Part shown: positions 46,305-64,000 of the stretch, one piece after another
Numbering within the stretch: the first letter of the stretch is position 1
Layout: every line of letters starts with the position of its first letter
Assembly: GCA_040756415.1 (NCBI GenBank)
Contig: JBFLYZ010000013.1
Coordinates: 3,768-67,767 of the forward strand
Source: Bacteroidota bacterium
GTDB taxonomy: Bacteria; Bacteroidota; Bacteroidia; JADZBD01
Reading direction: 5' to 3'
Length of the DNA stretch: 64,000 bases
Position numbers and translations under genes: made by a program
Notes under the pieces: generated by a model
Database searches by the model: none
What the model was told of the DNA's origin: nothing
What the model saw: only the letters and a program-made list of their open reading frames with translations

Positions 46305-47323
46305 GTGAGCAGTTTTTGAATATAAGGACTTACGGTATCGGTCATCAGCAGTTCAAGGGTAAGCAAAATCAGGGCCCAGAGTAGGAACACCTGGAAGCGG
46401 TCGATGTACTCGCTGTACGATTTTACCGTGCTTTCTTGCTGGTCCATGCTGCGTACGCGGCTCATGATGGTGTTAAGCCCGCTTTCGGAATTAGTGGCCC
46501 GGGTGTAGGTGCCTTTCCCCGCAGCGCTGATGTTTTTCAGCAGTCCTTCGTCCAGCTTCGATACGATGGTCTGTCCGTTCTCGTCCTTTTTGAAAACGAT
46601 GTTGCCGTATTCGTCCTCCACCGGGATGGGGGCTCCTTTGGCGGTGGCCATGCCTATGCAATGCACCACGATGCCCTTGCCGGCCGCTTCCTGGGCCGCA
46701 TCCAGGGCGTCCTGGTCATGGGTCTCCCCGTCAGTGATCAGCACAATTACCTTGCTCCCGATGCTGCCCTCCCCGAAGGACCTGGCGGCCATGCGCAGGG
46801 CGGGGCCTATTTCGGTGCCCTGTGCGGATATCAGGTCGGTATCGATGTTATCCACGAACAGCTCGGCCGAACCGTAATCGGTGGTGATGGGCAGTTGCAG
46901 GAAAGGCGTGCCCGCGAACACCACGATCCCCAGCCGGTCACCGTCCAGCTTCCCGGAAAGGTTGACGATGGCCTGCTTGGCGCATTCCAGGCGGTTGGGG
47001 GCGATGTCCTCGGCCTTCATGCTGTTCGAGATATCGAGAACGATCATGATATCGATGCCTTCCTTTTTCTTCTCCACGGTCCGGGTGCCTATGCGCGGGT
47101 TCATGATGCCGATAATGAGCAGTACGATCCCGGTCGTGTAAACGGCAAAGCGGATCACCTGCTTGAGCACCGACCTGCCGGGTATGAGGTGCGCGATCAC
47201 CCCCGCCTCGGCAAAGCGGAAAAGGGCCCTTTTCTTCCATTGCAGGAGCAGGAAAAAGATCACGATCATCACCGGGATGACGATGAAGAGATAGATGTAT
47301 TGCTTGTTTCCGAAATCCGTCAT
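46280..47323 (-). CDS. batB: VWA domain protein BatB
   Basis: 347 aa. It has N-terminal TM helices and a VWA MIDAS segment (DIMIVLDISNSMKAEDIAPNRL). It overlaps batA by 4 nt. Confidence 0.85.
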   Translation of the reverse strand: MTDFGNKQYIYLFIVIPVMIVIFFLLLQWKKRALFRFAEAGVIAHLIPGRSVLKQVIRFAVYTTGIVLLIIGIMNPRIGTRTVEKKKEGIDIMIVLDISNSMKAEDIAPNRLECAKQAIVNLSGKLDGDRLGIVVFAGTPFLQLPITTDYGSAELFVDNIDTDLISAQGTEIGPALRMAARSFGEGSIGSKVIVLITDGETHDQDALDAAQEAAGKGIVVHCIGMATAKGAPIPVEDEYGNIVFKKDENGQTIVSKLDEGLLKNISAAGKGTYTRATNSESGLNTIMSRVRSMDQQESTVKSYSEYIDRFQVFLLWALILLTLELLMTDTVSPYIQKLLTWKKRSQS

Positions 47324-48321
47324 GGTATGCTTCTGAACACGGTGTGTCTTAATAAAAATTCCAGCATCAATATGACCAGCGCGATGATGGCATAAGGCGC
47401 GAAGAGCTCCGTCTTTTTCTGGGAGTTCTGCCCTTCGAAACGGGTCTTTTCCATCTTGCCGATCTCATCATAGATCGCCTTCAGGCTTTTGTTGTCCGTG
47501 GCGCGGAAATACTTGCCGCCAGTCATCTCAGCGATCTTGGTCATGGTTTCCTCATCGATCTCTACCGGAACATAATCGAAAATGTAATCTCCCCCGGGGC
47601 CGATCTGTACGGGCGAGCGGGCCATGCCCATGGTGCCGGCCCCGATGGTGTACACGCGAACATCGAATGTCTTTGCTATCTCGGCAGCAGTAAGCGGTGA
47701 TACGCTGCCCGCGTTGTTCACCCCATCGGTAAGCAGGATCACGATCTTGCTCTTGGCCTTGCTGTCTTTGATGCGGCTCACGGCAGTGGAGAGCCCCAGG
47801 CCGATGGCCGTGCCGGCCTCGATCATGCCCGGCTCCACCTGTTTGAACATGGCCTTGAGCACCGCGTGGTCGGTGGTGAGCGGGCATTGCGTGAAGCTTT
47901 CCCCGCTGAAAATGACCAGGCCCATGCGGTCGTTCGGATGCTGATCGATGAACTCCATGGCCACCTGCTTGGCGGCATCCAGGCGGTTAGGCTTGAGGTC
48001 GGTGGCCAGCATGCTGGCAGAAATGTCGAGCGAAAGCATGATATCCACACCCAGGGTATCGGTCTTTTTCTGGGGGCGGGCCATGGCGCAGATCAGGAAG
48101 GCGAGGGCGATCATGCGCAGCACGAACAGCGAGTGGCGCATGTACTGTTTGGCCGAGGGGGCCACACCCGTAAAATTACGGAGAGAAGAAGTGCGTATGC
48201 CGGTGTCGCGGTTGCGGTAGCTGTTGAAAACATACAAGCCGATCAGGACGGGGAACAGCCAGAAGAGGTTGAGCCATTCCGGTTCGGTAAACTGAAAATA
48301 TTTCGACAATCCTTCGCTCAT
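47320..48321 (-). CDS. batA: VWA domain protein BatA
   Basis: 333 aa. It has N-terminal TM helices, a MIDAS segment (DIMLSLDISASMLATDLKPNRL) and a C-terminal TM helix. There is a 4-nt overlap with the upstream gene. Confidence 0.85.
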   Translation of the reverse strand: MSEGLSKYFQFTEPEWLNLFWLFPVLIGLYVFNSYRNRDTGIRTSSLRNFTGVAPSAKQYMRHSLFVLRMIALAFLICAMARPQKKTDTLGVDIMLSLDISASMLATDLKPNRLDAAKQVAMEFIDQHPNDRMGLVIFSGESFTQCPLTTDHAVLKAMFKQVEPGMIEAGTAIGLGLSTAVSRIKDSKAKSKIVILLTDGVNNAGSVSPLTAAEIAKTFDVRVYTIGAGTMGMARSPVQIGPGGDYIFDYVPVEIDEETMTKIAEMTGGKYFRATDNKSLKAIYDEIGKMEKTRFEGQNSQKKTELFAPYAIIALVILMLEFLLRHTVFRSIP

Positions 48322-49280
48322 CGCTTTTCGTCCTCCTGTTCTCCGGCAACAGGTTTGGGGATATTCGCTTTTACAAATTTAACGGCATCGTCAACCACCA
48401 CTTCGTTCTGCAGGTCTGTCGGGACCTCTTTGGCGAACTTCACCATATCCGTCAGGTGGAGCACGAGGCGCAAAACGTTTTTGCTTTCCCTGCTGATGGA
48501 CAGCTTTTCGACCTCCGTGAGAATGTCATAGGTAGGCATTTCCATGGCGTTTATGCCGAAGCTGCGCTCGAGAAAGGTGCGCACGATCTCGCTTACCCGG
48601 GTATGGTGCTCCTTGGTATCGTCTTTCCCTTTTTTCCACATTTTTTCCTTTTTGAGCTTTTCCAGGGCGTTCAGGGCTATCTCGTGGGCCGGGCGTGAGC
48701 GGTCGGCCAGGGCGTACATCTGTTTTTTATTCTTCAGGTACCTCCTCACCAGGAAGAAGACCAGGGCGGCTGCCGCCAGCCCTGCCGTGATCCATACGTA
48801 CAGGGCCAGGTCCTCGAAGGTGAGCGGTTCATGAATGGGAGGCTTGATGTCCTTGAAATCGGCAGTGGTGTCTACGTCCACCGTCTTCACACGCAGGGGC
48901 AGGGGATTGGTCTCCACGTACTGGTTGGAGTCGTTGTTGAGGATAAACCGGAGGGAGGGGATAAGGTAATTGCCCTCATCAAAGCTGGTGATGACGAAAT
49001 CGCGCGACTGGATGTAATCCACCTTGTTACCCTTGCTGCGTGGCGCGTCAACAAAGCGGCCGGTCTTTACGATCTCTATGCCTTTGATGATCGTATCATT
49101 GAACCGGGGCCATTCGATCTTCAATACATTGGTTCGCTGGTAACGTATCTTGATCCGCAGGGTGGTTTGCTCGCCAATGCGCATCTCGTTCGTGTCGAGC
49201 GTGGCTTCTACATTGATGCCGAGCTGGGCGCCCGCGCTGGTGCCGGTGAACAGGAGGAGTATGAACAGCGCCTTTTTCAT
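48318..49280 (-). CDS. Bat-operon membrane protein (BatD-N-like ectodomain + TM + DUF4381-like cytoplasmic part)
   Basis: 320 aa. It has a signal peptide, a beta-rich ectodomain resembling the BatD N-terminus (INVEATLDTNEMRIGEQTTLRIKI), a TM helix (LALYVWITAGLAAAALVFFLV) and a helical tail. It sits between DUF58 and batA. The DUF4381 call is from memory. Confidence 0.6.
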   Translation of the reverse strand: MKKALFILLLFTGTSAGAQLGINVEATLDTNEMRIGEQTTLRIKIRYQRTNVLKIEWPRFNDTIIKGIEIVKTGRFVDAPRSKGNKVDYIQSRDFVITSFDEGNYLIPSLRFILNNDSNQYVETNPLPLRVKTVDVDTTADFKDIKPPIHEPLTFEDLALYVWITAGLAAAALVFFLVRRYLKNKKQMYALADRSRPAHEIALNALEKLKKEKMWKKGKDDTKEHHTRVSEIVRTFLERSFGINAMEMPTYDILTEVEKLSISRESKNVLRLVLHLTDMVKFAKEVPTDLQNEVVVDDAVKFVKANIPKPVAGEQEDEKR

Positions 49281-50176
49281 CTGCGTGTGCCGCGCCTGCG
49301 GAACAGGTTCAGGAGTATCTTATAATAGTTGTCGTTGGTGCCGATTGAAACGTGATCTATGCCGCAGCGCTTGAACACATCCACGAGCTTGCTTTCGCTG
49401 CGCCTGGCATTCACCGCGTACTGCATGCGCAGGTGGCGGTTAGAGGTGTCTACCCACATCATCTGACCCGTTTCGGCATCGCGCATGCGCACCAGCCCGA
49501 TATCAGGCAGTTCGGCTTCACGCGGGTCGAAAACGCGTATGCCCACCACATCGTGCCTCCGGCTGGCGATGTTCAGCTCGTCCTCAAAGCCGCCCTGGGT
49601 CATGCGCTGGGCAGGGCCGTCAATAAAGTCGGAGATGATGAATGCGATGCTCCTGCGCCTGGAGGTCTGTGAAAAATATTTTACCGCGGCACCAATGTCG
49701 GTGCCCTTTCCTTCGGGCCGGTGGCTTAGCACCTCGTGCACGATATGCAGGATCTGGTGATGACCTTTTTTGGGAGGAATGTAGCGCTCCACTTTTTCTG
49801 AAAAGAGGATAAGCCCGATCTTGTCGTTATTGGTCGTGGCCGAGAAGGCCAGCACCGCGCACAGCTCCGCGATCAGGTCTTTTTTGAGCTGTACGCGCGT
49901 TCCGAAGCTCTCGGAGGCGCTGATATCGACCAGCAGCATGATATTAAGCTCCCTTTCCTCGTGGAACATCTTTACGTAGGGGTGATTGAAGCGCGCGGTC
50001 ACGTTCCAGTCGATGGTGCGTATGTCATCGCCCTGCTGGTATTCGCGCACTTCGGAAAAGGCCATGCCGCGGCCCTTGAAGGCCGAATGGTATTCGCCCG
50101 AAAAGACCTGGTTGGATAAAGCGCGGGTCTTTATCTCGATCTTGCGGACCTTTTTCAGCAGCTCTTTGCTATCCAT
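49277..50176 (-). CDS. DUF58 domain protein (MoxR-associated)
   Basis: 299 aa. It has the classic DUF58 N-terminal region GEYHSAFKGRGMAFSEVREYQQGDDIRTIDWNVTAR and a VWA-like core (NIMLLVDISASE). Confidence 0.85.
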   Translation of the reverse strand: MDSKELLKKVRKIEIKTRALSNQVFSGEYHSAFKGRGMAFSEVREYQQGDDIRTIDWNVTARFNHPYVKMFHEERELNIMLLVDISASESFGTRVQLKKDLIAELCAVLAFSATTNNDKIGLILFSEKVERYIPPKKGHHQILHIVHEVLSHRPEGKGTDIGAAVKYFSQTSRRRSIAFIISDFIDGPAQRMTQGGFEDELNIASRRHDVVGIRVFDPREAELPDIGLVRMRDAETGQMMWVDTSNRHLRMQYAVNARRSESKLVDVFKRCGIDHVSIGTNDNYYKILLNLFRRRGTRR

Positions 50177-50257
50177 ATCAATCGAACAGCGGATAACGGA
50201 TCCCAGCGAATGGCGAATTCCTTAACATTCGTAACCGCAGAGTCCGTTATTCGCAGG

Positions 50258-51241
50258 TTAGGGGATCTCTATCGTATTTAAAATCTCGTTCACGATCATC
50301 TCGCTGGTGATGTTCTCCGCTTCGGCTTCGTAGGTAAGGCCGATGCGGTGGCGCAGCACATCGTGGCATACGGCCCGCACATCTTCCGGTATCACATACC
50401 CCCTGCGTTTGATAAAGGCATAGGCCTTCGAAGCCAGGGCCAGGTTGATGCTGGCGCGCGGTGACCCGCCATAACTGATGAGGGGGGCGAACTTCTGCAG
50501 CTTATAATCGTTCGGGAAACGCGTAGCGAAGACGATATCGAGTATATAATGCTCGATCTTTTCATCCATGTAAATGGTCTTCACCGTTTCACGGGCCTTG
50601 ATGATATCCTCGGGTTTCAGTATGGTCTTCAGGCTTTCGGTGCCCCTGATGTTATTGCGCATAACCCGCTGCTCGTCCTTTTTGCTGGGATAGGTGATGA
50701 CCACTTTCAGCATAAAACGGTCGACCTGCGCCTCGGGCAGCGGATAAGTGCCTTCCTGCTCGATGGGGTTTTGGGTGGCCATGACCAGGAAGGGGTCGGG
50801 CAGCTTATAGGTTTCCTCGCCAATGGTCACCTGCCTTTCCTGCATGGCTTCCAGCAGGGCGCTTTGCACCTTGGCCGGGGCGCGGTTGATCTCATCGGCC
50901 AGCACGAAATTGGCGAAAACGGGCCCTTTGCGTACGGTGAACTCCTCTTTCTTCTGGTTATAGATCATGGTGCCGGTCAGGTCGGCAGGGAGCAGGTCGG
51001 GGGTGAACTGAAGGCGGCTGAACTCGGCATGTATGCACTGGGCCAGCGATTTGATGGCCAGTGTCTTCGCAAGCCCCGGCACGCCTTCGAGCAGGATGTG
51101 GCCATTGCTGAGCAGGCCGATGAGCAAACGGTCGATCATTTCTTTTTGCCCGACAATGACCTTGCCCAGCTCGTTGTGGATGTAGTCTACCAGCGCGCTC
51201 TCCTGCTGAACACGTGTGTTGAGTTCCTGTATATCGTTCAT
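50258..51241 (-). CDS. MoxR family AAA+ ATPase
   Basis: Walker A LLEGVPGLAKT, Walker B FANFVLADEINRA and the MoxR C-terminal lid (GGSPRASINL, VIPEDV). Start is at MNDIQELN; ATG 51280 is an alternative. Confidence 0.9.
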   Translation of the reverse strand: MNDIQELNTRVQQESALVDYIHNELGKVIVGQKEMIDRLLIGLLSNGHILLEGVPGLAKTLAIKSLAQCIHAEFSRLQFTPDLLPADLTGTMIYNQKKEEFTVRKGPVFANFVLADEINRAPAKVQSALLEAMQERQVTIGEETYKLPDPFLVMATQNPIEQEGTYPLPEAQVDRFMLKVVITYPSKKDEQRVMRNNIRGTESLKTILKPEDIIKARETVKTIYMDEKIEHYILDIVFATRFPNDYKLQKFAPLISYGGSPRASINLALASKAYAFIKRRGYVIPEDVRAVCHDVLRHRIGLTYEAEAENITSEMIVNEILNTIEIP

Positions 51242-51383
51242 AAAATAGTGTTTTTGGGCCTCTTTTTCAGAGAGGCTCAAAGTTAACTTTTAAGTCTTAA
51301 CAGGGCAATGGCGGGGTGTTAATATTTGTTAAGGGGAAAAGGGCCGGTGAGGCAATAAGAAGCAAGCAGATAAGCGAAGGCGA

Positions 51384-52727
51384 TTATTTTTTTCCAAACA
51401 GCCGGTCGAAGCTGCGCTCGATGTACTTCTCGCTGGGGAGCAGGGATTCTTGTATGCGTTTGGCGTAATGTATGCTGTCTACCATTTCTTTTTGCTTTTC
51501 TTCAATGATCAGCTTTTGCCTGCTGATCTCCATATGTGCCTGCCGTTTTAGCCGGTAGCCTCTGAAAATGAGTATGGCCAGGAGCAGGACCAGCCCCAGT
51601 CCCGCGCTCACCGCATAGATGATCACCTGCTGCTGCTTCTGCCTGGCTTCGGCCAGTTCGTTCTCTTTCAGCAGCAGGGCCTCTTTTTTCTCGTATTCAT
51701 ACCTGACCTGCTGCTTGTATGTTTCCTTACGGATATTCTCGTTATTAATGCTGTCGCGCATTTTAATGTGCAGCTCGTACATGTTGAACGAATTTTCCCA
51801 GTCCCCCTCCTTCTTATAGATATTGCTCATGAGCAGGGCTGCTTTGCGTATGTTGAGCGGGAAGCCGGCAGCCATGGCCTGGCTGAGGCTCAGTTCAGCG
51901 TATTTGCGTGCCGTGACCATGTCGCCCCGCTCGAAATAGATCTGTCCCAGGTCATGGGCGGTAAAGGAAATGCCTTTTTTGTCCTTGATCTCCTCGCGCA
52001 TGGCCAGGCTTTTCATGAAATAATCCATGGCCTTATCCATTTGCTTTTGAGACTGGTAAATACCGGCCAGGTTATGCAAAGCCGTGGCGATCCCTCTTTT
52101 GTCACCCGTCTGTTGACGAAGGGCGAGGCATTCGTTGAGGTATTCCAGTGCCTTTTCATACTTGCTCTGGTTACGGTATACCTGGCTGATGTTGTTCAGG
52201 CAATAGGCGATGCCGTTCTTGTCGTTGCGCTGGCGGTTGATGGCCAGGCTTTTTTCATAATACTCGAGGGCCAGGGCGGTGTCGCCCTGGTTGGCGTAAA
52301 CAAAGCCAACGTTGTTCAGGCAAACCGAAAGTCCTTCCTTATCGTCCAGTTCTTCGCAAAGCCTGAGGGCGATGAGATAATACTTCAGCGAGCGGCTGAT
52401 ATCGCCCTGGTTGTTGTAGCAGAAGCCAAGGCTGTTGGTAGCCTCGGCAAAAAGCCGCTTATACGTCCGCTGCATTCCGGGGGTCAAGCCGGGCGCGGCC
52501 AGCCCGTGTTCGGCAATACGCGATGCTTCCAGCCAGAGTTTCAGCGCGGAATCCGGCTGGTTGAGGTGAAGAAGCTGTCCCCATTGCATGTAGGCGGTGG
52601 CCCTGGCCGTGTCGTGCCCGCTGGCGATCACTTTTTTCAGCGAGTCGATCGTGTTCTCAGACAAAGAATAAACAACAGGGAGAAGGGCTATGGCCAACAA
52701 GCAGGTCTTGCGCATGGTTTCAAACAT
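51384..52727 (-). CDS. TPR-repeat membrane sensor-like protein ending in a PP2C/SpoIIE lead-in helix but lacking the phosphatase domain
   Basis: 447 aa. It has a signal or anchor sequence, about 7 TPR units (LNNVGFVYANQGDTALALEYYEKSL and similar), a TM helix (VIIYAVSAGLGLVLLLAILIF), a coiled coil, then SIHYAKRIQESLLPSEKYIERSFDRLFGKK and a stop. Confidence 0.8.
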   Translation of the reverse strand: MFETMRKTCLLAIALLPVVYSLSENTIDSLKKVIASGHDTARATAYMQWGQLLHLNQPDSALKLWLEASRIAEHGLAAPGLTPGMQRTYKRLFAEATNSLGFCYNNQGDISRSLKYYLIALRLCEELDDKEGLSVCLNNVGFVYANQGDTALALEYYEKSLAINRQRNDKNGIAYCLNNISQVYRNQSKYEKALEYLNECLALRQQTGDKRGIATALHNLAGIYQSQKQMDKAMDYFMKSLAMREEIKDKKGISFTAHDLGQIYFERGDMVTARKYAELSLSQAMAAGFPLNIRKAALLMSNIYKKEGDWENSFNMYELHIKMRDSINNENIRKETYKQQVRYEYEKKEALLLKENELAEARQKQQQVIIYAVSAGLGLVLLLAILIFRGYRLKRQAHMEISRQKLIIEEKQKEMVDSIHYAKRIQESLLPSEKYIERSFDRLFGKK

Positions 52728-53477: not shown

Positions 53478-53497
53478 CCTGTTAAGGGCGTGTGCCT

Positions 53498-54223
53498 ATG
53501 AAAAACCTGTGGAACCGCATATCGGTTATCGGCTATTCCCGCCTGCGCGATGAGCAGGATGCCCGCCAGCTCGGATTATTGAACCGGATCGCCTTCCTTT
53601 CGGCCATTGTCCTGCTTTCTCTTATTCCCGTAGGCATTTATTTCAGGCAAATACTGGTTACGGTTTATGTCTGCATAGGCGTTGTGCTTTGCCTGTGCAC
53701 CCTGTACTTTAACGCCAGGGGGCTTTTCCGTTTCGCCCGGATGTATTACTTCTTTATCTCGCTTGCTTTTATAACCATCGTGGTGCTGATCAACGGTAAG
53801 GACTCGGGCAGCCAGATCACCTTCGTCCTTCTCGGGGCGCTGCACCTGGTGCTGTTCAGGGAATCGAGATACCCGCTGCTGGTCCTGGCCGGGGTTATCG
53901 CGTTGTTTGGCGCAACCTGCTATTGGGTTGAGACCCGAGGCGCCCTGCTCGATGTGATCGAGTACAGCGTTAAGCGAAGCGCTTTTTACATCAATATATT
54001 ATGCAATATCGTGCTTGTGTTCAGCGTAGTGCTGTACTTTAAGAACACGGCAGCGGAATATGAGTCGAAGCTGCTGCAAACGAATGACGAGATCACCCAA
54101 AAGAACAAGGATATTACCGACAGTATACGCTATGCCAGGCGAATCCAGCAATCGTTGCTGCCCAGCGATAACTATATCGAAAAAAATCTGAATCGTCTTA
54201 ACAGATCCGATGAGCATGAATAA
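53498..54223 (+). CDS. Multi-TM (about 6 helices) sensor-like membrane protein ending in the same PP2C/SpoIIE lead-in helix
   Basis: About 241 aa; GTG 53492 is an alternative start. The core is hydrophobic, followed by a short coiled coil and ITDSIRYARRIQQSLLPSDNYIEKNLNRLNRSDEHE, then a stop. Confidence 0.65.
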   Translation: MKNLWNRISVIGYSRLRDEQDARQLGLLNRIAFLSAIVLLSLIPVGIYFRQILVTVYVCIGVVLCLCTLYFNARGLFRFARMYYFFISLAFITIVVLINGKDSGSQITFVLLGALHLVLFRESRYPLLVLAGVIALFGATCYWVETRGALLDVIEYSVKRSAFYINILCNIVLVFSVVLYFKNTAAEYESKLLQTNDEITQKNKDITDSIRYARRIQQSLLPSDNYIEKNLNRLNRSDEHE

Positions 54224-55035: not shown

Positions 55036-55788
55036 GTGAGGTACTTTGCAAAACTTTCGTACGTGGGTACGGCTTATAACGGCTGGCAGGTGCAGGAGAA
55101 CACACCGCGCACCGTTCAGCAGGTGCTGAACGAGAGCATATCCCGTCTGCTGAATGAAAAGATCGAATTCACCGGCTGCGGGCGCACGGATACGGGCGTT
55201 CATGCCGCGGAGTTTTACGCTCACTTTGATTCTCAAAAGGACCTGAGCGATCCCGAATCCGTATATAAGTTCAATTCGGTCGTTCCGCGCGACATAGCGG
55301 TGCAGGAGCTGCTCCGCGTGAAGGATGCCGCCCATGCCCGTTACGATGCGATCAGCCGCAGCTACCGCTACCAGATCATTCAGCAGCGTAATCCCTTCTT
55401 CAACGAAAGGGCAGCCTTTCTCTACGCCCCCCTGGATATCGATCGCATGAACGAAGCCGCAAAAGCGCTTTTTGACTATAGCGATTTCACCTCGTTCAGC
55501 AAGCTGCGCACGCAGGTGAAAACCAACCTGTGCAAAGTGATGAGAGCGGAGTGGAGCAGGGAAGGGGAGCTGCTGGTGTTCCGCATCACGGCCGATCGTT
55601 TCCTGCGCAATATGGTAAGGGCGATCGTAGGCACCCTGGTGCGGGTAGGGAAAAAGGAAATCAACGCTGACGATGTGCGCAGGATCATCGAAAGCAGGGA
55701 CAGGGGCAACGCGGGCGAATCCTTTCCCGCTCATGGTTTGTACCTGGAGAAAGTGGTCTATCCGGCAGAACTGTTTCTGAATGAGTGA
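55036..55788 (+). CDS. truA: tRNA pseudouridine(38-40) synthase
   Basis: 250 aa with a GTG start. It has YFAKLSYVGTAYNGWQVQ, the catalytic-Asp motif GCGRTDTGVHA and FLRNMVRAIVGT. Confidence 0.9.
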   Translation: MRYFAKLSYVGTAYNGWQVQENTPRTVQQVLNESISRLLNEKIEFTGCGRTDTGVHAAEFYAHFDSQKDLSDPESVYKFNSVVPRDIAVQELLRVKDAAHARYDAISRSYRYQIIQQRNPFFNERAAFLYAPLDIDRMNEAAKALFDYSDFTSFSKLRTQVKTNLCKVMRAEWSREGELLVFRITADRFLRNMVRAIVGTLVRVGKKEINADDVRRIIESRDRGNAGESFPAHGLYLEKVVYPAELFLNE

Positions 55789-57559
55789 AGGGCAGCGAAC
55801 ATCGGTAAGCGGCAAGGCTTTCGACCTGAAGCTGTTCGGGCGCGTGCTCGCCTACACGCAGCCGTACAGGGGCCGTTTTATCCTCTCTATTGTACAGACC
55901 TTCGCGCTATCCCTTTTTTCCATTGTGCGGCCTTTCATCATCATGTACGCGATCAATGATTGCATACGCACCAAGGACCTCAACATGCTGCTGATCTACA
56001 CCCTGATCATGATCGCCTCGCTGTTCATCGAATCCTTTCTGCAGTACCGCAATGCCTACCTTACCGGCTGGCTGGGGCAGACCATCATCAAGGATCTGCG
56101 GGTGCAGTTGTACAGGCATATCGTGAGCCTTCGCGCCAAATACTTTGACAATACGCCAATCGGCCAGCTCGTTACCCGTACCATTTCCGATATCGAAGCG
56201 ATTTCGGACATCTTCTCCCAGGGTTTCATCATCATCATGGGCGATATCCTTACGCTGATCGTATTTGTAGTAGCCATGTTCGCGGTGAACTGGAAGCTGG
56301 CCCTGGCCGTAATGGCCGTGGTGCCCCTGCTGCTGCTGTCGACCTACATCTTTAAGAACGCGGTGAAGGCCTCTTTCCAGGACGTGCGTACCCAGGTGGC
56401 CCGGCTGAACACCTTCGTGCAGGAGCATATCACCGGCATGAAGATCGTGCAGATTTTCAACCGCGAGGATGCCGAATACGAGCGTTTCCGCAGGATCAAT
56501 GCCGCCCACCGCGATGCCAACATACGGTCGGTGTTCAGCTATTCGGTATTCTTCCCGGTGGTGGAGATCTTGCTTTCGGCAGCGATCGGCCTGGTGATCA
56601 GGGTGGCCGGCAGGGAGCTGTATAACCTGGAGGTGCAGGCGGGCGAGGTCACCTTCTTCCTTTTGTTGTCCAATATGTTCTTCCGCCCCATCCGCATGCT
56701 GGCCGACCGTATCAACGTGCTGCAGATGGGCATGGTGGCCAGCGAGCGCGTGTTCCGCGTGCTCGATACCCGCGAGCAGATCGAAGACAAGGGTACCGTG
56801 GCGGGTAACATGGAGGGAAATGTGTTGTTCAGCAAGGTCTGGTTCGCGTATAACGATGAGAATTACGTGCTCAGGGATATCTCTTTCCGGGTGAATAAGA
56901 ATGAAACGATCGCGCTCGTGGGTTCTACCGGTTCGGGCAAAACATCGGTCATCAACCTGCTCAATCGCTTTTATGAGTACAATAAGGGAGAGATCAGCAT
57001 TGATGGGATCAATATTCGCGATTACCGCATCGACTGGCTGAGGCGGCACATCGCGGTAGTGCTGCAGGACGTGTTCCTCTTTTCAGATACCATCGCCAAT
57101 AATGTGTCGCTCTGTAATCCGGATATCACGCGCGAGCAGATCATTGCCGCCTCCAAAGCGGTGGGCGCGCATGATTTTATCATGAATCTTCCCGGCAATT
57201 ATGATTACAACGTGATGGAGCGTGGCGCCATGCTGTCGGTTGGCCAGCGGCAGCTCATCGCTTTCATCCGCGCGTATGTATATAACCCGCGTATACTGGT
57301 ACTGGACGAAGCTACCTCCTCGATCGATACGGAAGCCGAGCTGCTGATACAGGAAGCCACCCGCAAGCTCACGGAGAACAGGACATCCATCGTGATCGCC
57401 CACCGCCTGGCCACCGTACAGCGGGCCGACCGCATCATCGTGATGGACCACGGCCGTATCGTGGAGCAGGGCTCGCACCAGGAGCTGCTGAAGCTGAACG
57501 GGCAGTACAGGAAATTGTTCGAGCTGCAGTTCAAAGGCGAGCGTACAGACGCTCTTTGA
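55781..57559 (+). CDS. ABC transporter, fused permease/ATPase (MsbA/ABCB-type exporter)
   Basis: 592 aa. It has a six-TM exporter domain, Walker A GSTGSGKTS, signature LSVGQRQL, Walker B ILVLDEATSSID and H-loop VIAHRL. It overlaps the truA stop by 8 nt. Confidence 0.9.
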   Translation: MSEGQRTSVSGKAFDLKLFGRVLAYTQPYRGRFILSIVQTFALSLFSIVRPFIIMYAINDCIRTKDLNMLLIYTLIMIASLFIESFLQYRNAYLTGWLGQTIIKDLRVQLYRHIVSLRAKYFDNTPIGQLVTRTISDIEAISDIFSQGFIIIMGDILTLIVFVVAMFAVNWKLALAVMAVVPLLLLSTYIFKNAVKASFQDVRTQVARLNTFVQEHITGMKIVQIFNREDAEYERFRRINAAHRDANIRSVFSYSVFFPVVEILLSAAIGLVIRVAGRELYNLEVQAGEVTFFLLLSNMFFRPIRMLADRINVLQMGMVASERVFRVLDTREQIEDKGTVAGNMEGNVLFSKVWFAYNDENYVLRDISFRVNKNETIALVGSTGSGKTSVINLLNRFYEYNKGEISIDGINIRDYRIDWLRRHIAVVLQDVFLFSDTIANNVSLCNPDITREQIIAASKAVGAHDFIMNLPGNYDYNVMERGAMLSVGQRQLIAFIRAYVYNPRILVLDEATSSIDTEAELLIQEATRKLTENRTSIVIAHRLATVQRADRIIVMDHGRIVEQGSHQELLKLNGQYRKLFELQFKGERTDAL

Positions 57560-59066
57560 GCCGGGCGTAGTCGATCTTGGAGTTGTGCCGCGGGTCGCGG
57601 GGTATCCTGTCCAGGAAAACGATCTCTTCTATGTCTGGGGCTTGCGCTTTGATCGCTTTCCCGATCTGTTTCCGCGAGAAGGCTTTCCCGATCTGCACAA
57701 TGGCGCACAGCTTGCCGCGGCAGTCGAGCAGGGTGCCGAGCTCAACTCCTTCGATCGTTTGAAAGTAGTTTTCGTAAACAAAAGGGGAGATGAGCGTTCC
57801 GTTCTTGTTTATCAGCATGCTGCACCGCCCCGTGAGGAAGAGCGTTCCGTCCTGGTCCAGGTAACCGCTGTCACCTGTGCGGTGCCAGCATGAATCACCG
57901 ATGAAGATCTTATTCCTTTTCAAAGCTTCCTCGTTATTGAAGTACTCCCTCAGCACATGATCACCGCTTACGATGATCTCCCCGATATGCCCGGGAGCAA
58001 GGCTGAGCCTTTCGAGTTCCCCGGCCGAGGCAACGGAAATATCCAGCCCGCTTATCCCGATGATCCTTACCCGCGCGCTGGGGTCGGGCTTGCCCGCTTT
58101 CAATCCGCGCTTCAGCGCTGCCGTTCTCTCCAGGATAAGTTCCTGCGCGCTGATAGAGCTGATGGGTTCGGCCTCGGTTGAGCCGTACACGACCTCTACG
58201 TGCGCGGAAGGGAAGGCCCGCACATAGAGCTCGGCTTCGGCAGGAAAAACGGGCGCTCCCCCTGTGAATATCTTTGCTACCCCGGGCAGTTTTTTGCCGT
58301 TGCGTATCATTGTTCGGGAAAGCTCCCTGACGAAGTATGGCGAAGCGATGATCCGCGAGACCCCGTACTGCTCGATCTGGCCGATGATCCGTTCCGGCCG
58401 GAGCGATTCAGGCCTGGAAGCCTTGAAATCGGCAATTACGGAGGTAATGCCGCTGCCCAGGTTGAGCAGCAGCACGATGGGCAGTACCGGCATGTCGATC
58501 TCCTGCTGATCAGCGCCCGTTTTCCGGATAAGGGCCCTGAACTGGGCATGCAGGAACCCGTGCGTGCGCTTGGCCGCCTTGGGAGTGCCTGTGCTGCCGG
58601 TGGTGAACGTGATCAGCGCAGTATCGTCAGCCGATGTTTCAGGAAAGCGGCCGAAGGGCAGGGGTGTGTACGCGGTGCTTAATTTCAGGGGGATCTTTCT
58701 CAGCTCGGACGAGAACCAGGAAAGCAGCCTTGCCTTGAAAATACCGATGAAGGCTTTGCACTGCGCCACTTTGCAGCATTCCTCCATTCTTTTTTTTCCG
58801 ACCCACTCGTCAAGGAATACGGCCGTAGCCCCTATGCGGAAGAGGGCCAGCACGATGCGGTACAGGTCGGGGCTCATGGGAACGAAGATGAGCACCCGGT
58901 CGCCTTTGGCGATCCCCCTTTTCAGAAAATAAGCCGCTGTGCCGCTTACCTGCGCTTCCAGCTCGGCAAACGTGGTCTTCCGGTCCTTGCAGATAAGAGC
59001 TGTTTTACCCGGGCGCTTCCGGGCGGATTCATAGAAAAGATCAACGATGTTGAAGGGCTCAGCCAT
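57531..59066 (-). CDS. Adenylate-forming enzyme (acyl-CoA/acyl-AMP ligase family)
   Basis: 511 aa. It has the AMP-binding motif FTTGSTGTPKAA and later YGSTEAEP and TGDSGYLDQDG motifs. It is the last gene of a six-gene overlapped operon. Confidence 0.85.
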   Translation of the reverse strand: MAEPFNIVDLFYESARKRPGKTALICKDRKTTFAELEAQVSGTAAYFLKRGIAKGDRVLIFVPMSPDLYRIVLALFRIGATAVFLDEWVGKKRMEECCKVAQCKAFIGIFKARLLSWFSSELRKIPLKLSTAYTPLPFGRFPETSADDTALITFTTGSTGTPKAAKRTHGFLHAQFRALIRKTGADQQEIDMPVLPIVLLLNLGSGITSVIADFKASRPESLRPERIIGQIEQYGVSRIIASPYFVRELSRTMIRNGKKLPGVAKIFTGGAPVFPAEAELYVRAFPSAHVEVVYGSTEAEPISSISAQELILERTAALKRGLKAGKPDPSARVRIIGISGLDISVASAGELERLSLAPGHIGEIIVSGDHVLREYFNNEEALKRNKIFIGDSCWHRTGDSGYLDQDGTLFLTGRCSMLINKNGTLISPFVYENYFQTIEGVELGTLLDCRGKLCAIVQIGKAFSRKQIGKAIKAQAPDIEEIVFLDRIPRDPRHNSKIDYARLKERLYARL

Positions 59067-59658
59067 GGTATTCGCTCTCGGTAATGCGCTTGATGTTCTT
59101 CATGTTCTCCTCGAATATATCCTTGATCTTGTAGGCAGCGATATAGGTCTTCACGCTTTCGAAAAAGGAAGGCTTCTTATCCTTGTAGAACACGGTGAAG
59201 GTGATCCTGCAGCGGGCGCTGTCCAGCTTTTCATAGATCTGCTCGGTGGCCAGGTTCTCGGCTGTGAGCGAGAATCCCTGCATATTGTAAATGGTAAGCT
59301 GCCTTTTCTTGTACGGGACCACTTCAGTGATCAGCTCATCCCAGCGGGTGCCGCTTTCATCGGCATTGCAGAAACATCGCCTCCTGCTGCCGGGCGTGCC
59401 ATCGGTAAAGCTGTCGGGGTTCAGCGTGCTGATATGGTCGACATATACCGACCAGCGCGAAACGTTATCTGAATTACCCAGAAAGCGGTATACCTGTTCT
59501 ACGGGCGCATCGATCTCAACGGAATGCCGTATAAGCTTATACTCGAAACCCTTGTGATTTCCGTAGGGGCTGCCTACTACGGTTATAAAAGCAATAAAGG
59601 CCAGCAGGGTGAGCGTAATGGCCGCCCACTTTCTGAATTTATTCGATCTTTTTTCCAT
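59059..59658 (-). CDS. Membrane-anchored SRPBCC superfamily protein
   Basis: 199 aa. It has an N-terminal anchor helix WAAITLTLLAFIAFITVV, then IDAPVEQVYRFLGNSDNVSRWS typical of SRPBCC ligand-binding domains. There is an 8-nt overlap with the downstream gene. Confidence 0.6.
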   Translation of the reverse strand: MEKRSNKFRKWAAITLTLLAFIAFITVVGSPYGNHKGFEYKLIRHSVEIDAPVEQVYRFLGNSDNVSRWSVYVDHISTLNPDSFTDGTPGSRRRCFCNADESGTRWDELITEVVPYKKRQLTIYNMQGFSLTAENLATEQIYEKLDSARCRITFTVFYKDKKPSFFESVKTYIAAYKIKDIFEENMKNIKRITESEYHG

Positions 59659-60649
59659 AAAGCATGTAATTTTTAAATACAGTTCCTGAAAAAGCCGCTG
59701 AAGTTGGAGTGGATGTGCCTTCCTCGATCATAAAAGCGTGTATGACCGAGCTGTATCCCTCCTGAACAGCCGCTCTGTAAATGCTGTTACCCATGACCTG
59801 TCCCAGCCCTTTCCATTTCCTGTCGGGGTTACGGGCAATGGTCTTGACCACGAGCTGCTTTTCCTTCGTGTTGAAAAAATTGTGAAGGCAAAAGAAGTAA
59901 CCGATCAGATTTCCGTTGTTGTCTTCCGCCAGCAGGACAAAACGGGGGTCAATGATCTTCTTTGTTTCCGCGTATTTCCTGATAAAGGTCTCCCTGCTCA
60001 CAGGAGTATAGAGGAAGTTATCCCTGAAGGCCAGCAGGCTGAAATCGAAGAGCCGGCTCAGCTCTTTTTCGTATTCACGGAGATCAATGGCCCTCAGCCT
60101 TACGCCTGCTGCGCTGAGCTCGCGCTCGCGTTCCATAACTTCGGGCCGGTCAAACCTCATGATGGCATCTATGCTGGAGAAATACCGGGCTATGCCGGTA
60201 AACCCGGCCTGTTTGAAGTGGTCGTTGTAATAGAGGTGATGATAGGGCTCTGGGAAAAACCCCGGGCTGTCGTGATGCAGGCTGAAACGGTAATGGTTCC
60301 AGGTGCTGCCGTTCATAGGCCCCAGGATGTATTCTGCACCGAGTTTTTTCGCTTCTTCGCAGCAATGGCGAAGCAGCCGCTGCGCCAGCTCCGGCTCATC
60401 GGCCGATTCGTAATTGCCCAGGCAGAGGCATTTTTGCCCTGCGAACTGCAGATGGGGGTTAGAATAGAGCGCGGCCCTTGCTTTTGCCCTTCCGTTCGCC
60501 CGCAGGACATAGGCGGCCATCAGGTAATCGGTATTGAGGTCTTCGGGCAGGGCGAAGCGCAGGCTGCCCGAAGGATAAAGGGCGGCCGGGAGCTCACTGA
60601 ACAGCTCAAAATCCTTGTCGGCAGCTTGCAGGCGGATGATCTCGCTCAT
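59639..60649 (-). CDS. GNAT-like acyltransferase (large, two-lobed)
   Basis: 336 aa. The C-terminal lobe has an acyl-CoA-binding-type R-x-x-G-x-G element (NPDRKWKGLGQVMGNSIY). The family call is tentative. Confidence 0.55.
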   Translation of the reverse strand: MSEIIRLQAADKDFELFSELPAALYPSGSLRFALPEDLNTDYLMAAYVLRANGRAKARAALYSNPHLQFAGQKCLCLGNYESADEPELAQRLLRHCCEEAKKLGAEYILGPMNGSTWNHYRFSLHHDSPGFFPEPYHHLYYNDHFKQAGFTGIARYFSSIDAIMRFDRPEVMERERELSAAGVRLRAIDLREYEKELSRLFDFSLLAFRDNFLYTPVSRETFIRKYAETKKIIDPRFVLLAEDNNGNLIGYFFCLHNFFNTKEKQLVVKTIARNPDRKWKGLGQVMGNSIYRAAVQEGYSSVIHAFMIEEGTSTPTSAAFSGTVFKNYMLYGKKIE

Positions 60650-61317
60650 AAGAATAGTGTTAGTATGAGTATCACGCTTGCCGGGATGGTGATGTTATCG
60701 AGGCCCTTTCCGCTGACCGCTTCGGTTACCGATGAGAAAAGCGCTGTAAGCGCAGCCAGCCTCCAGATAGCCATCCAGTCCGGTTCGGTGACGGAAAGGA
60801 AGAAGAGCAGTGGCACCGTAAGCAGGAGAGAAGAAACAAAAAAAGCGCTCACGCCAACGAGTGTCTTGCTGTCCTTACCGATCCTGAAGCGGCCGTAAGG
60901 GAAGCGTTTGCCGAACAGGGCGGCCATGGGATCACATATGGCCAGGGTGAGTATGGGCAGGTAAAAGTAGACCAGCTCGCGGTGGTTATGCTCGAATACG
61001 AGAAAACAGCCGTACACCGCCACGGGGTAGGAGATGCTTCCGTGCGACCTGCGGTCAATGGCATTAATGGACCGGAGCAGGTCAAAGCGCAGGCTGGCCA
61101 TCAGGATGAGCGCGAAACTGGCGCAGAGGAAAAGCACGTGCCAGTGGCTGCTCAGCAGCAAGGGGAAAAGCAGCGTTAGCAGGCCTGTGCCGGAATGCAC
61201 CAGCTTCCGGGTGAGCTCGGCCTTTACGCCCAGTTTGTGGTAGAGCAGCTCGGCAACGCCAAAGAGCAGGAGAAAAGCCGTAGCCAGCAAGGCCGTATGG
61301 ATGATGTCCGTGTTCAT
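60646..61317 (-). CDS. CTP-dependent polyprenol/phytol/DAG kinase family membrane protein (CTP_transf_1-like)
   Basis: 223 aa with about 6 TM helices. TRKLVHSGTG and CDPMAALFGKRFPYG...KTLVGVSAFF resemble the dolichol/phytol kinase signatures. Confidence 0.6.
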   Translation of the reverse strand: MNTDIIHTALLATAFLLLFGVAELLYHKLGVKAELTRKLVHSGTGLLTLLFPLLLSSHWHVLFLCASFALILMASLRFDLLRSINAIDRRSHGSISYPVAVYGCFLVFEHNHRELVYFYLPILTLAICDPMAALFGKRFPYGRFRIGKDSKTLVGVSAFFVSSLLLTVPLLFFLSVTEPDWMAIWRLAALTALFSSVTEAVSGKGLDNITIPASVILILTLFL

Positions 61318-62405
61318 TTTTTTCTGTCGATGATGAACTGGTCGTAGAAAAATCCCTTGTCGATTTCGCTCAGCGAGGCGGAGAGCGACTGCAGGTATTC
61401 CGCTTTTTCGGGAACCAGGGCCGAAATCCTGCGCGGCACCATCAGGTTCCAGTAGGCCAGCCTGCCCCCGGCAACGCTTCCGTTCAAAAGCTCTTCTGCC
61501 GTGTTACGGAACAGGTCACGGCTCATGTATTCGAAGATGTTGGAGAGGTTCATGCCGTGGAAAGGCCCGTATTTGCGTACGGCATCCTCGGCATAGCCTT
61601 CCAGTATATGCAGTCGCCCGATACGGCTGCGTATGGCCTCGAAATTCTCTCCTCGTACATAATGCGGCAGCAGCCCACCGAAATCCCCGGTGAGGTTGAA
61701 GCGCAGGATGAAGTTATGCTGGGCCCTGACGCTGCAGAGCTGTTTTTCGGCCTTTCGGTAAATGAAATCAGCTACGGAAAAGTTCACCTCTTTAAGAAAC
61801 TCCGGATCGCGGCCGTATTTCCCCATCACGTAGCGGCTGAAGAATATGCGGAACAGCAGTTTCCACTGCCAGGAGTTCCAGGTGCTGCGGTAAAATTCGT
61901 TCTGGCCGGCTTCGGTCTTTTCGCTGAAAAGCAGCCTGACCGTGCTGCCCGAATGTATCCAGGGCAATATCTTCCGGCTGAAGGTCTGAAAATACCGCTC
62001 GAACTTTCCGGCAAAGATCACCCCCTGGCGCACCTGGATAAGGTTCTTATCCCAATACGACCTGGAGGCCGGGCTTAATCCGGTTTTGATCCGGTGGTAG
62101 AGCTCTTCCCTTTTGGCGCTCGCGCTGAAGCCCAGGAAGGCCAGCAGCTCTTCATAGCTCAGCTCCATAAATGCCGCTTTTTTCAATTCGACCAGGTAAA
62201 GCTGTGTTTTGTTCACGTCAACGGCCACCACCAGGTCCGGATTGCGCGCCAGCAGGGAAAAGCTGTTGTCGCCTGCCGAGCCTACGGATAGTATGCTGCT
62301 GCCCGGCCCGGGCGATAATCCTTCCAGCAGGATATCCGCATCCTCCCAGCAATTGGCGTAGCGGATGATGCCGAAGTCGACACGCTGCGTGAGATCTTTA
62401 GCCAT
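61314..62405 (-). CDS. DUF3419 / BtaA-like SAM-dependent 3-amino-3-carboxypropyl-transferase family protein
   Basis: 363 aa. IRYANCWEDADILLEGL...SILSVGSAGDNSFSLLARNPDLVVAVDVNKTQLYLVELKKAAF matches the conserved N-terminal region of DUF3419/BtaA proteins. Confidence 0.8.
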   Translation of the reverse strand: MAKDLTQRVDFGIIRYANCWEDADILLEGLSPGPGSSILSVGSAGDNSFSLLARNPDLVVAVDVNKTQLYLVELKKAAFMELSYEELLAFLGFSASAKREELYHRIKTGLSPASRSYWDKNLIQVRQGVIFAGKFERYFQTFSRKILPWIHSGSTVRLLFSEKTEAGQNEFYRSTWNSWQWKLLFRIFFSRYVMGKYGRDPEFLKEVNFSVADFIYRKAEKQLCSVRAQHNFILRFNLTGDFGGLLPHYVRGENFEAIRSRIGRLHILEGYAEDAVRKYGPFHGMNLSNIFEYMSRDLFRNTAEELLNGSVAGGRLAYWNLMVPRRISALVPEKAEYLQSLSASLSEIDKGFFYDQFIIDRKK

Positions 62406-64000
62406 GGCGCTTAATGATCTTTATTTCACCGGTGCTTCCGTCCATTTCCACTTCATCGCCCGTTCGGAGCGTTTTCAGTAGGCCGCTCACGCTTACGATA
62501 CAGGGTTTCCCCATTTCCCGCGAAACGATGGCCGAATGGCTGAGCAGGCTGCCCCGTTCAACGATAATGCCCGATGCGCTGGGGAAGAGGGTCACCCAGC
62601 CGGGATCGGTGCTCGAAGTGACCAGGATGTCCCCGTTCAGCGAGGCCACCTTGCCGGGATCGAGTATGACCTGCACTTTACCGCGTACCTTGCCCGGGCA
62701 GCAGCCAATGCCTTTCAGATCGCCTTTTATGTTCGCGGTTTTTTCGGTGCTAAAGAAATCATTGGCGAAGTAAACACTGCCGTAGGTGGCGAAGCGCTCG
62801 GAAGGCGGTGGCATTTGCCTGTATCGCTCGAACTCTTCCTTTCTTAAAGCGACCAGCGCGCGCAGGTTCTGTGTAACGCTTGTTCCTTCGATGAAAGAGA
62901 AGATCTCTTCTTTGGTCAGGTAAAAAATATCGCGCTCATGGTCGATGATACGATCGGTGGCGAAGCGTTTGCCGATGTGACTGAACAGCTCCCGCACGAT
63001 ACCGAATGCACGCGTTCGCTCGTAGCGCAGGTTCTCGCGCGAGCTGACCAGCTCGCGCGCCTTCCGGAGTATGCGCTTCAGTTTCCATTTTTTGAAGGGA
63101 CGGAAGCGCAGCGCGTCTTCCAGCTCCCGTTCGGCACTGGCGCGCAGCTCTTCCTCTATTTTCCCGGTGGTCTTATCCGTGGTGATGCCGCTTTCAACGT
63201 AAGCGCGCAGTACTTTAATGAAGAGGGAAGGGTCCTGTGTATAGGAGATGGTCTCCAGCTTCAGCTCGCCAATGCATCGCTCACCGAAATCAGCGATGTA
63301 GCGGTCTATTTCCTTTTTGAGCGCGGCAAACCGGTCGTTCAGTCCTTCGCCTAGTATTCTCCAGATGTCCTGCTCGTTATTCTCCCTGAACAGCTCGCGG
63401 AGCTCTGTGTCAGCCGTGATCGCAGTGGCCAGGGCTATGCTGCGGTGTATCGGCTGCGTGGAGATGATGTCGCTGCTGCCGCAGAGCAGGTCGTTGTGTA
63501 TGTTCGGGTTCCTGCTGATGCGGTATCTTTCACATGTTTTCTGCAGCAATCCGAACCATATCATGGTAAAGAAGTCGTTCAGCAGGGGCGCTTTCCACTC
63601 GTTCAGCAGCCTGCGCTCGAAGCCGAGGTAGAGCTTCATCAGCTCATCTGCGTTCTTCTGCTCGTAATCGATATGCTTATAAACGGTGATCGTTTCCTTG
63701 AACAGCCGCATGAACTGTTTCCTTTTGCGGGGCAATGACAGAAAGCGGAAGTACATGTTCACGGCTATTCGGATAATGCTCAGCCAGGCTTTGGCCTTCG
63801 ACAGGCGGTAGTCGTTCGGGATATCGAAACGCTCTTTCACGCCCATCATCTTTTCCATGAAGCGGGCATTGATGCTGTACCCGGGCAGCATGGCCAGCAT
63901 GTGGTACCAGGTCTTGAGATTATAATAGACCCTCCCGTTTATCAGCCCGAGCGTATTGGCAAACACCCGCCTGTTCTCCCGTATCACCCGCTGGCTTACG
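62398..64000 (-). CDS. PEP-utilising-enzyme swivel-domain phosphotransferase (PpsA/rifampicin-phosphotransferase-like), N-terminus outside the window
   Basis: The frame stays open through nt 64000 (...VSQRVIRENRR), so the 5' end is missing. The C-terminal ~90 aa are a mobile phosphohistidine domain (GDILVTSSTDPGWVTLFPSASGIIVERGSLLSHSAIVSREMGKPCIV), preceded by a ~400-aa helical domain. Confidence 0.8.
   Translation of the reverse strand, partial: VSQRVIRENRRVFANTLGLINGRVYYNLKTWYHMLAMLPGYSINARFMEKMMGVKERFDIPNDYRLSKAKAWLSIIRIAVNMYFRFLSLPRKRKQFMRLFKETITVYKHIDYEQKNADELMKLYLGFERRLLNEWKAPLLNDFFTMIWFGLLQKTCERYRISRNPNIHNDLLCGSSDIISTQPIHRSIALATAITADTELRELFRENNEQDIWRILGEGLNDRFAALKKEIDRYIADFGERCIGELKLETISYTQDPSLFIKVLRAYVESGITTDKTTGKIEEELRASAERELEDALRFRPFKKWKLKRILRKARELVSSRENLRYERTRAFGIVRELFSHIGKRFATDRIIDHERDIFYLTKEEIFSFIEGTSVTQNLRALVALRKEEFERYRQMPPPSERFATYGSVYFANDFFSTEKTANIKGDLKGIGCCPGKVRGKVQVILDPGKVASLNGDILVTSSTDPGWVTLFPSASGIIVERGSLLSHSAIVSREMGKPCIVSVSGLLKTLRTGDEVEMDGSTGEIKIIKRHG

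Follow-up and report, generated by a model that had tools for sequence, protein, structure and literature searches.

A 64,000-nucleotide stretch of contig JBFLYZ010000013.1 from a Bacteroidota bacterium (assembly GCA_040756415.1; hereafter the window, numbered from its first base) was analysed with respect to a gene cluster at its distal end in which several lipid-modifying enzyme families appeared to be combined. In the open reading frame (ORF) listing of the window, six minus-strand ORFs follow each other with consecutive overlaps of 8, 4, 4, 20 and 8 nt. Read in the direction of transcription, they encode the C-terminal part of a swivel-histidine phosphotransferase (here called the dikinase; ORF 62398-63987, the gene being open to position 64000), a DUF3419 protein that is a distant paralogue of the betaine-lipid enzyme BtaA (61314-62405; PF11899), a polytopic membrane protein of 223 amino acids (aa) tentatively placed by indirect evidence in the CTP_transf_1 superfamily of CdsA and phytol/dolichol kinases (60646-61317), a 336-aa tandem-repeat GNAT acyltransferase (59639-60649; PF00583 and predicted fold), a membrane-anchored SRPBCC (Polyketide_cyc2) protein (59059-59658; PF10604) and an acyl ligase of the adenylate-forming type that falls in the PRK09274 group and has OleC as a relative (57531-59066; PF00501). 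A plus-strand gene for an MsbA-like ABC exporter (55781-57559), whose product matches MsbA models best, is convergent with the ligase gene, the two 3' ends sharing 29 nt. A first-pass annotation of this DNA had described the six genes as one translationally coupled unit; the coordinates reproduce the overlaps given there exactly, and Pfam and NCBIfam models confirm its family calls for five of the six proteins, the membrane protein being supported indirectly. The dikinase gene is cut at the window end: no stop codon occurs in the last window bases ahead of the ORF, and the 529 residues present, corresponding to positions 367-892 of an 898-position model, make up roughly the C-terminal 60% of the protein, with the substrate-binding region and the swivel-His domain. 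Because of this truncation, the ATP-grasp domain and anything encoded further upstream fall outside the window. A consensus scan inside the unit gave no excess of sigma-70-like promoters or of terminators, a result of little weight, and Bacteroidota promoters are different from the sigma-70 consensus.

In a scan of one genome per species, at least 577 stretches with relatives of this DUF3419 clade were found, and the best 80 were taken for locus analysis. The cluster proteins were searched against these loci (numbered L001 onwards) by tblastn, and the presence of a gene was counted only where the flanking sequence sufficed. Gene order and strand were alike almost everywhere in about 80 loci, the median spacing of consecutive operon genes being -4 to -1 nt, and the recurrence of both order and tight coupling in about 80 genomes indicates that the grouping goes beyond chance and supports a single, coupled unit. 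The full order in relatives was HMG-CoA reductase (HMGR), UbiA-family prenyltransferase, dikinase, DUF3419 protein, membrane protein, tandem GNAT, an optional SRPBCC protein and AMP-forming ligase; relatives with a DUF3419 protein 59-64% identical to that of the window (L001, L003 and L004) carry HMGR, UbiA, a full-length dikinase, DUF3419 and the rest. HMGR was present in 56 of 63 loci, UbiA in 66 of 67, the dikinase in 69 of 69, the membrane protein in 71 of 78, the GNAT in 71 of 74 and the ligase, which closes the operon, in 58 of 62. Since HMGR and UbiA are carried upstream in relatives, the window genes constitute the distal part of an operon of seven to eight genes, and the apparent number of six was an artefact of the window edge. 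The SRPBCC protein, found between GNAT and ligase in 11 of 62 loci, belongs to the family that had been proposed for it but is not a constant member. The MsbA-like exporter gene had likewise been put forward as part of the neighbourhood: its 29-nt convergent overlap is real, but none of the related loci had such a gene next to the cluster. The overlap is thus probably local, and the candidate role of MsbA as exporter of the pathway was rejected, the gene being probably unrelated.

Synteny of the cluster was strong across Bacteroidota and beyond. Carriers include Cytophagales (Dyadobacter, Rhabdobacter, Microscilla and Bernardetia), Sphingobacteriales, Chitinophagales, Saprospiraceae and Flavobacteriales (Fluviicola and Crocinitomicaceae), and identity among the top protein matches was 57-64%. 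Outside Bacteroidota the distribution is patchy, the same gene set having been found in Brevibacillus laterosporus B9 (L085), in a Planctomycetaceae metagenome-assembled genome (MAG; L082) and, among Rhodobacterales, on a 137-kb plasmid of Roseinatronobacter sp. S2 (L084). Chitinispirillaceae (L066) and Kapaibacterium MAGs also carry it, on short contigs that stop before the HMGR and UbiA positions, and L073 and L082 keep the genes together despite rearrangement. MAGs labelled Synechococcus, Rhizobium or Alphaproteobacteria (L033, L056, L058 and L073) contain clusters 47-53% identical to the Bacteroidota ones, the variant architecture of L056 and L058 being that of the Chitinophaga-labelled L048; mis-binning or mislabelling, rather than transfer, may account for these labels.

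The two genes that head the operon in relatives strengthen the earlier guess of a link to isoprenoids. HMGR is a true member of class I, matching an archaeal structure (6hr7) with an E-value of 5e-82 and with the EGALVAS, DKK and GQD motifs and the C-terminal His aligned. Reduction of some other acyl-CoA by this enzyme, for example of the ligase product, was considered and dropped, as the protein aligns with archaeal and human HMGR and its catalytic motifs are intact. The UbiA-family prenyltransferase (323 aa in close relatives) was compared with named models for 20 members, all 20 of which matched the uncharacterised model PRK13592, with weaker matches to PRK12884, EboC, BchG/ChlG and DGGGPS; none of the 20 matched the MenA, UbiA, HPT or heme O synthase models. 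Among PDB sequences, a search with a UbiA profile returned only chlorophyll synthase (ChlG) and DGGGPS, both at E-values of about 1e-3 (1.4e-3 for DGGGPS structure 6m31). Judged from these similarities, the enzyme is weakly placed nearest the oxygen-prenylating DGGGPS/ChlG/EboC branch.

The third gene encodes a phosphotransferase in which the swivel domain PF00391 covers residues 452-520 of the window protein (E 9e-24), the phospho-carrier His lying within the motif GSLLSHSAIVSRE (window translation; SHSAIVSRE). The protein aligns with NCBIfam model PRK06241.2-2 (positions 367-892 of 898), and full-length homologues of 825-869 aa consist of PPDK_N, Rph_4th and PEP-utilizers domains and terminate after the swivel domain, so that a PEP/pyruvate barrel is lacking. 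Among solved structures, 5hv1 and 5fbs come nearest (E 1e-70); they are deposited under the name 'Phosphoenolpyruvate synthase', and we take them to be the Listeria rifampin phosphotransferase. The dikinase is also near the PRK06241 'PEP synthase' models, which cover PigC and RedH as well, and its arrangement of ATP-grasp, substrate and swivel-His domains without the barrel is that of Rph, PigC/RedH and the flavonoid phosphate synthetase family. It differs from Rph and PigC in scoring far below both equivalog cut-offs (130-304 against 999 bits for Rph and 153-324 against 1300 bits for PigC, the upper value in each case coming from a full-length homologue), and is a separate PRK06241.2-2-like subfamily that always adjoins a UbiA enzyme. 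The kinship with prodiginine-condensing PigC and RedH bears on the idea that the operon product is diffusible, a specialised metabolite or signal such as an N-acyl-homoserine derivative bearing a prenyl group or the product of a PigC-type condensation. The plasmid-borne copy in Roseinatronobacter, the P450 gene next to the Brevibacillus cluster and the patchy distribution beyond Bacteroidota could also be cited for this idea. It is considered very improbable: the gene content is almost invariant across several Bacteroidota orders (at least 577 relatives), as is more often the case for a physiological lipid, two of the operon enzymes are integral to the membrane and act on lipid substrates, and phospholipid head-group enzymes are inserted in the operon of some lineages.

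The DUF3419 protein matches PF11899 over residues 14-360 of 363 (E 6e-60), and is thus homologous over its whole length to BtaA, the enzyme of the BtaA/BtaB betaine-lipid (DGTS) pathway of the Rhodobacter and Rhizobium type. Identity to BtaA proteins encoded next to BtaB was 22% end to end for Rhizobium leguminosarum pSK03 (L086), with WED and GSxGxN motifs common to both proteins in the pairwise alignment, and 24.5% for Chondrinema (L089), a Cytophagales plasmid that carries its own btaA-btaB pair. Because of these identities of 22-25%, the operon clade is a paralogue of BtaA and not BtaA itself. A BtaB-type methyltransferase was found neither in the window nor among the recurrent accessory genes of the 80 loci, which, together with the low identity, agrees with the earlier statement that this is not a canonical DGTS locus. 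The contrary reading, with DUF3419 acting as BtaA on diacylglycerol, could appeal to the strength of the domain match and to the labelling by JGI of many homologues as S-adenosylmethionine-diacylglycerol 3-amino-3-carboxypropyl transferase; given the distance from BtaB-adjacent BtaA, the missing BtaB and partners that are always a UbiA enzyme, the dikinase, the GNAT and the ligase, it was rejected as extremely improbable. By analogy, a likely common feature of the two systems is the alkylation of a lipid hydroxyl, dependent on S-adenosylmethionine (SAM), to give an amino-acid head group. They differ in that the amine in the operon product would probably be acylated by the GNAT and not trimethylated, and in that the lipid partner is probably an isoprenoid, as HMGR and UbiA suggest, and not diacylglycerol. 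A profile search of PDB sequences with the DUF3419 family yielded no useful match. Rhizobium sp. plasmid pMK-2 (L088, record 96195-109124) revealed a third DUF3419 clade, with 27-31% identity to the protein of the window and in a different operon, the neighbours there being a KAS III, an NAD(P) oxidoreductase, an MBL hydrolase and a CoF-synthetase-like adenylating enzyme.

The 223-aa membrane protein had no direct match in Pfam or NCBIfam, none to PF01148 even at an E-value of 10, and no useful match in a profile search of PDB sequences. Its AlphaFold2 (AF2) model (pLDDT 90) had CDP-DAG synthase 4q2e as best PDB fold match (probability 0.97, E 0.03, with a TM-score of only 0.36), one member of the family (P0490, which matches its profile at E 2e-49) exceeds the PF01148 cut-off (32.7 against 24 bits), and hhalign against CdsA-like genes found in some operons aligned the D...G...KT..G region at a probability of 15%. 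Invariant motifs are RKxVH, DPxAAxxGK, KTxxG and GxDNxxxP, the polyprenol-kinase motifs being D-x-x-A-x-x-x-G, K-(S/T)-x-E-G-(S/T) and D-N-x-x-x-P. The middle motif in Bacteroidota is KTxxG, lacking the Glu; the Brevibacillus, Roseinatronobacter, Chitinispirillaceae and Planctomycetaceae versions have the canonical KSxEGS, and the non-Bacteroidota proteins further show a DNLxxP motif and a C-terminal polytopic extension of about 220 aa. Homologues are named phytol kinase, dolichol kinase or phosphatidate cytidylyltransferase in the source databases.

These names and the canonical K-S-x-E-G-S and D-N-L-x-x-P motifs outside Bacteroidota invite an interpretation as prenol salvage feeding a prenylated small molecule, by analogy with tocopherol synthesis in plants and cyanobacteria. 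Prenols would then be phosphorylated by the membrane protein with CTP and a second time by the dikinase, and UbiA would join the prenyl chain to an acceptor, either aromatic or polar; DUF3419 would perform a methyltransferase-like tailoring step and the SRPBCC protein would be a cyclase. In phytol salvage and tocopherol synthesis, a prenol kinase (VTE5), a second phosphotransferase (VTE6) and a prenyltransferase of the UbiA family (VTE2) act together, and the operon likewise groups a prenol-kinase-like membrane protein with a second phosphotransferase and a UbiA enzyme; the presence of a UbiA enzyme within the same operon and the match of the SRPBCC protein to Polyketide_cyc2 fit such a scheme. 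The second phosphotransferase of the operon differs from that system in being an Rph-type dikinase and not a VTE6 homologue, aromatic-acceptor genes are missing from the operon, and the kinase-like gene is dispensable, variants of the L044 and L048 type keeping UbiA and dikinase without the membrane protein. The SRPBCC protein occurs in only 11 of 62 loci, the operon HMGR argues for de novo supply and not for salvage, the aromatic prenyltransferase models MenA, UbiA and HPT are not matched by the operon UbiA, and the GNAT, the ligase and an in-frame DUF3419-GNAT fusion (described below) would be left unexplained. Salvage was therefore judged improbable.

The GNAT protein matches PF00583 at residues 232-302 with 20.7 bits, exactly at the Pfam cut-off, and its AF2 model has a pLDDT of 90.1. 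Foldseek retrieved the tandem GNATs MAB_4324 (7q3a), the clavulanate tandem GNAT 2wpw, MshD 1ozp and the GlcN N-acetyltransferase 5kf2 at E-values of 1e-13 to 1e-11, the best (1e-13) being to 7q3a. According to the model, the 336-aa protein has a tandem-GNAT fold, with two GNAT folds per chain and a C-terminal CoA-binding loop, and residues K269, G281 and G283 are invariant. The SRPBCC protein matches PF10604 (E 4e-09, 37.4 bits) and shows an N-terminal hydrophobic helix in its translation. The ligase matches PF00501 (E 7e-47), with adenylation motifs intact, including TGSTGTPK and a C-terminal Lys. The best NCBIfam models for this last operon gene were PRK09274 (E 5e-108; 361 bits against a cut-off of 478) and, next, those for OleC (about 212 bits against 900); it differs from both groups in lying below their cut-offs, and OleA, OleB and OleD partners were found in none of the loci.

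As OleC beta-lactone synthetases act on beta-hydroxy acids, the ligase score also touches on a use of mevalonate as direct building block, the ligase making mevalonyl-CoA and the GNAT transferring it to an amine, or else on a non-canonical lower mevalonate route feeding UbiA, made up of the two phosphotransferases and the OleC-like ligase activating a beta-hydroxy acid. In fungal siderophore synthesis, mevalonyl-CoA is made and then transferred to an amine by SidI and SidF. The retention of HMGR in the Brevibacillus, Rhodobacterales plasmid and Planctomycetaceae MAG clusters is in line with such a use, as is the lack of any other mevalonate-pathway gene in the flanks fetched for these carriers; likewise, none was found in the flanks (flanks only, not whole genomes) of the Planctomycetaceae, L073 and L044 loci. 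A divergently transcribed gene for a 769-aa fusion of HMG-CoA reductase and an APH/choline-kinase-like domain also adjoins the Chitinophaga-type cluster (L048:3270-5579, minus strand) and recurs in L056, L058 and L083. The ligase, however, lies far under the OleC cut-off (212 against 900 bits), and a 223-aa integral membrane enzyme of a lipid-substrate family is unlikely to take hydrophilic mevalonate. HMGR is moreover explained by the supply of isopentenyl diphosphate in those Bacteroidota that use the mevalonate pathway, on which Flavobacteriaceae are reported to rely (PMC4026382). A direct role of mevalonate, in either version, was accordingly given a small chance of being correct.

Gene fusions and insertions connect individual steps. 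In four Chitinophaga-type loci, DUF3419 and the GNAT form a single in-frame fusion of 637 aa, which ties the SAM-dependent head-group step to N-acylation. In several proteins of the representative library, a CdsA-like domain is fused to the 223-aa membrane protein, and in five to seven Flavobacteriales and Sphingobacterium loci divergent genes for a CdsA-like protein (PF01148) and a CDP-alcohol phosphatidyltransferase (PF01066) are inserted, either between HMGR and UbiA or between dikinase and DUF3419; the inserted genes overlap those on either side, and their scores are far under the cut-offs for the housekeeping enzymes. Fusions and insertions together connect the membrane protein with the activation of a lipid phosphate by CTP. 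Other genes were seen in or beside the cluster in some lineages. In Fluviicola loci a HipA-type toxin kinase gene lies inside the operon, between dikinase and DUF3419 (L024:8683-9912, L027:8212-9441 and L019:9-653), and in Chitinophaga-type loci the ligase gene is followed by toxin-antitoxin genes of the PIN and DUF2281 families. The ligase gene of Brevibacillus is directly followed, with an overlap, by a gene for a cytochrome P450 (L085:14034-15260), and HMGR on the Roseinatronobacter plasmid (L084/L087) is preceded on its own strand by glycosyltransferase, WavE-family and HAD phosphatase genes; the P450, glycosyltransferase, WavE-family and HAD phosphatase genes may represent lineage-specific tailoring steps.

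Taken together, the operon is tentatively read, with somewhat less than even confidence, as building, as putative product, a lipid that derives from mevalonate, is anchored by an isoprenoid and bears an aminocarboxypropyl (homoserine-ether) head group with an N-acyl substituent. HMGR, identified by homology, would provide mevalonate and thereby the supply of prenyl diphosphate, and UbiA would put the prenyl chain on an oxygen of a small polar acceptor. The dikinase, in keeping with the type of chemistry of its homologues, would phosphorylate a hydroxyl of a hydrophobic intermediate with ATP via the phospho-His. DUF3419 would then use SAM to place a 3-amino-3-carboxypropyl group on a free lipid hydroxyl, a role proposed because BtaA, the sole characterised member of the family, does so on diacylglycerol. 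The new amine would be N-acylated by the tandem GNAT, a step supported by the DUF3419-GNAT fusion, with acyl-CoA provided by the AMP-forming ligase. The 223-aa protein would phosphorylate a lipid alcohol and, in some lineages, the product would be CDP-activated by the CdsA-like enzyme and receive a phosphodiester head group through the CDP-alcohol transferase, the SRPBCC protein serving as an optional lipid-binding helper.

Several points weigh against the proposed isoprenoid-anchored lipid. The families specify enzyme classes only, the substrates and the order of steps having been deduced from them. With only 22% identity to BtaA, DUF3419 could catalyse some other SAM-dependent reaction, and the affinities of UbiA to O-prenyltransferases are weak (E-values of about 1e-3 to 1e-10). 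The Chitinophaga-type operon is without the membrane protein and HMGR, so that not every proposed step is universal, and neither a polyprenyl diphosphate synthase nor a glycerol-phosphate prenyltransferase is found in the operon. HMGR also accompanies the cluster in lineages that presumably use the methylerythritol phosphate (MEP) pathway, where mevalonate itself could be a substrate.

The proposed lipid route shares part of its logic with archaeal ether-lipid synthesis (GGGPS, DGGGPS, CarS and CDP-alcohol transferases), bacterial echoes of which are found in the FCB group (PMC7852524). Common elements are a UbiA-family enzyme, a putative membrane enzyme of the CTP-transferase family and a mevalonate-pathway gene, all within the operon, as well as, in some lineages, the CdsA-like and CDP-alcohol phosphatidyltransferase genes. 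The archaeal pathway differs in that no GGGPS/PcrB was found among the operon genes or recurrent accessories and in that the similarity of UbiA to DGGGPS is marginal (E about 1e-3); archaeal lipid synthesis has nothing that corresponds to the dikinase, the DUF3419 protein, the GNAT or the ligase of the operon. A match to a characterised pathway was looked for, and no description of this gene combination was found in the full-text literature searched by combined family names, in agreement with the first-pass annotation. One paper, on the Lipocone, mentions UbiA and HMGR neighbourhoods but concerns different systems, and DUF3419 is merely listed as a flanking gene in a paper on chlorosphaerolactylate. 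The component families are all known, their combination is not, and the operon matches no pathway described in the literature searched; it may be classed as a lipid/isoprenoid biosynthetic operon, partly related to betaine-lipid and ether-lipid pathways, with a product that possibly belongs to a new lipid class.

The more far-reaching claim, that the product represents an unrecognised class of bacterial membrane lipid with an O-prenylated, isoprenoid-anchored backbone and an N-acyl-homoserine-type head group, CDP-converted in some lineages, is doubtful, with a modest chance of being right. If true, a widespread bacterial pathway would combine archaeal-like logic (mevalonate, a UbiA O-prenyltransferase and CTP activation) with betaine-lipid chemistry, which would be of relevance to the 'lipid divide'. 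Should the proposed isoprenoid-aminolipid route hold, an undescribed lipid of this kind would be made by hundreds of species of Bacteroidota, many being abundant members of soil, freshwater and algal-bloom communities, and functions would be provided for three poorly understood groups of enzymes, the non-BtaA DUF3419 proteins, the bacterial phytol/dolichol-kinase-like proteins and a large Rph-like 'PEP synthase' subfamily. 'Unidentified aminolipids' are routinely reported in polar-lipid profiles of these taxa, and such a lipid would account for part of them. As the operon is compact and occurs in culturable genera (Dyadobacter, Sphingobacterium and Brevibacillus), with natural variants and fusions, the proposal is directly testable.

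Elsewhere in the window, a 3686-aa protein (25287-36347, minus strand) contains 38 SprB repeats, PKD domains and a CHU_C type IX secretion signal, and two proteins of about 1140 aa (13922-17332 and 17453-20899, both plus strand) have the same architecture; all three SprB-repeat proteins are gliding-motility-type surface adhesins. A TPR protein (51384-52727, minus strand) and a MASE7 membrane protein (53492-54223, plus strand) share a near-identical end motif, DSI(H/R)YA(K/R)RIQ(E/Q)SLLPS..YIE..., and stop about 10-15 residues past it, so that they look like sensor modules with the output domain missing or separately encoded. Overlapping genes at 43893-51280 (minus strand), including BatD and a MoxR-type AAA ATPase, form an operon of the Bat/aerotolerance type, and a MatE efflux gene is located at 41877-43328.

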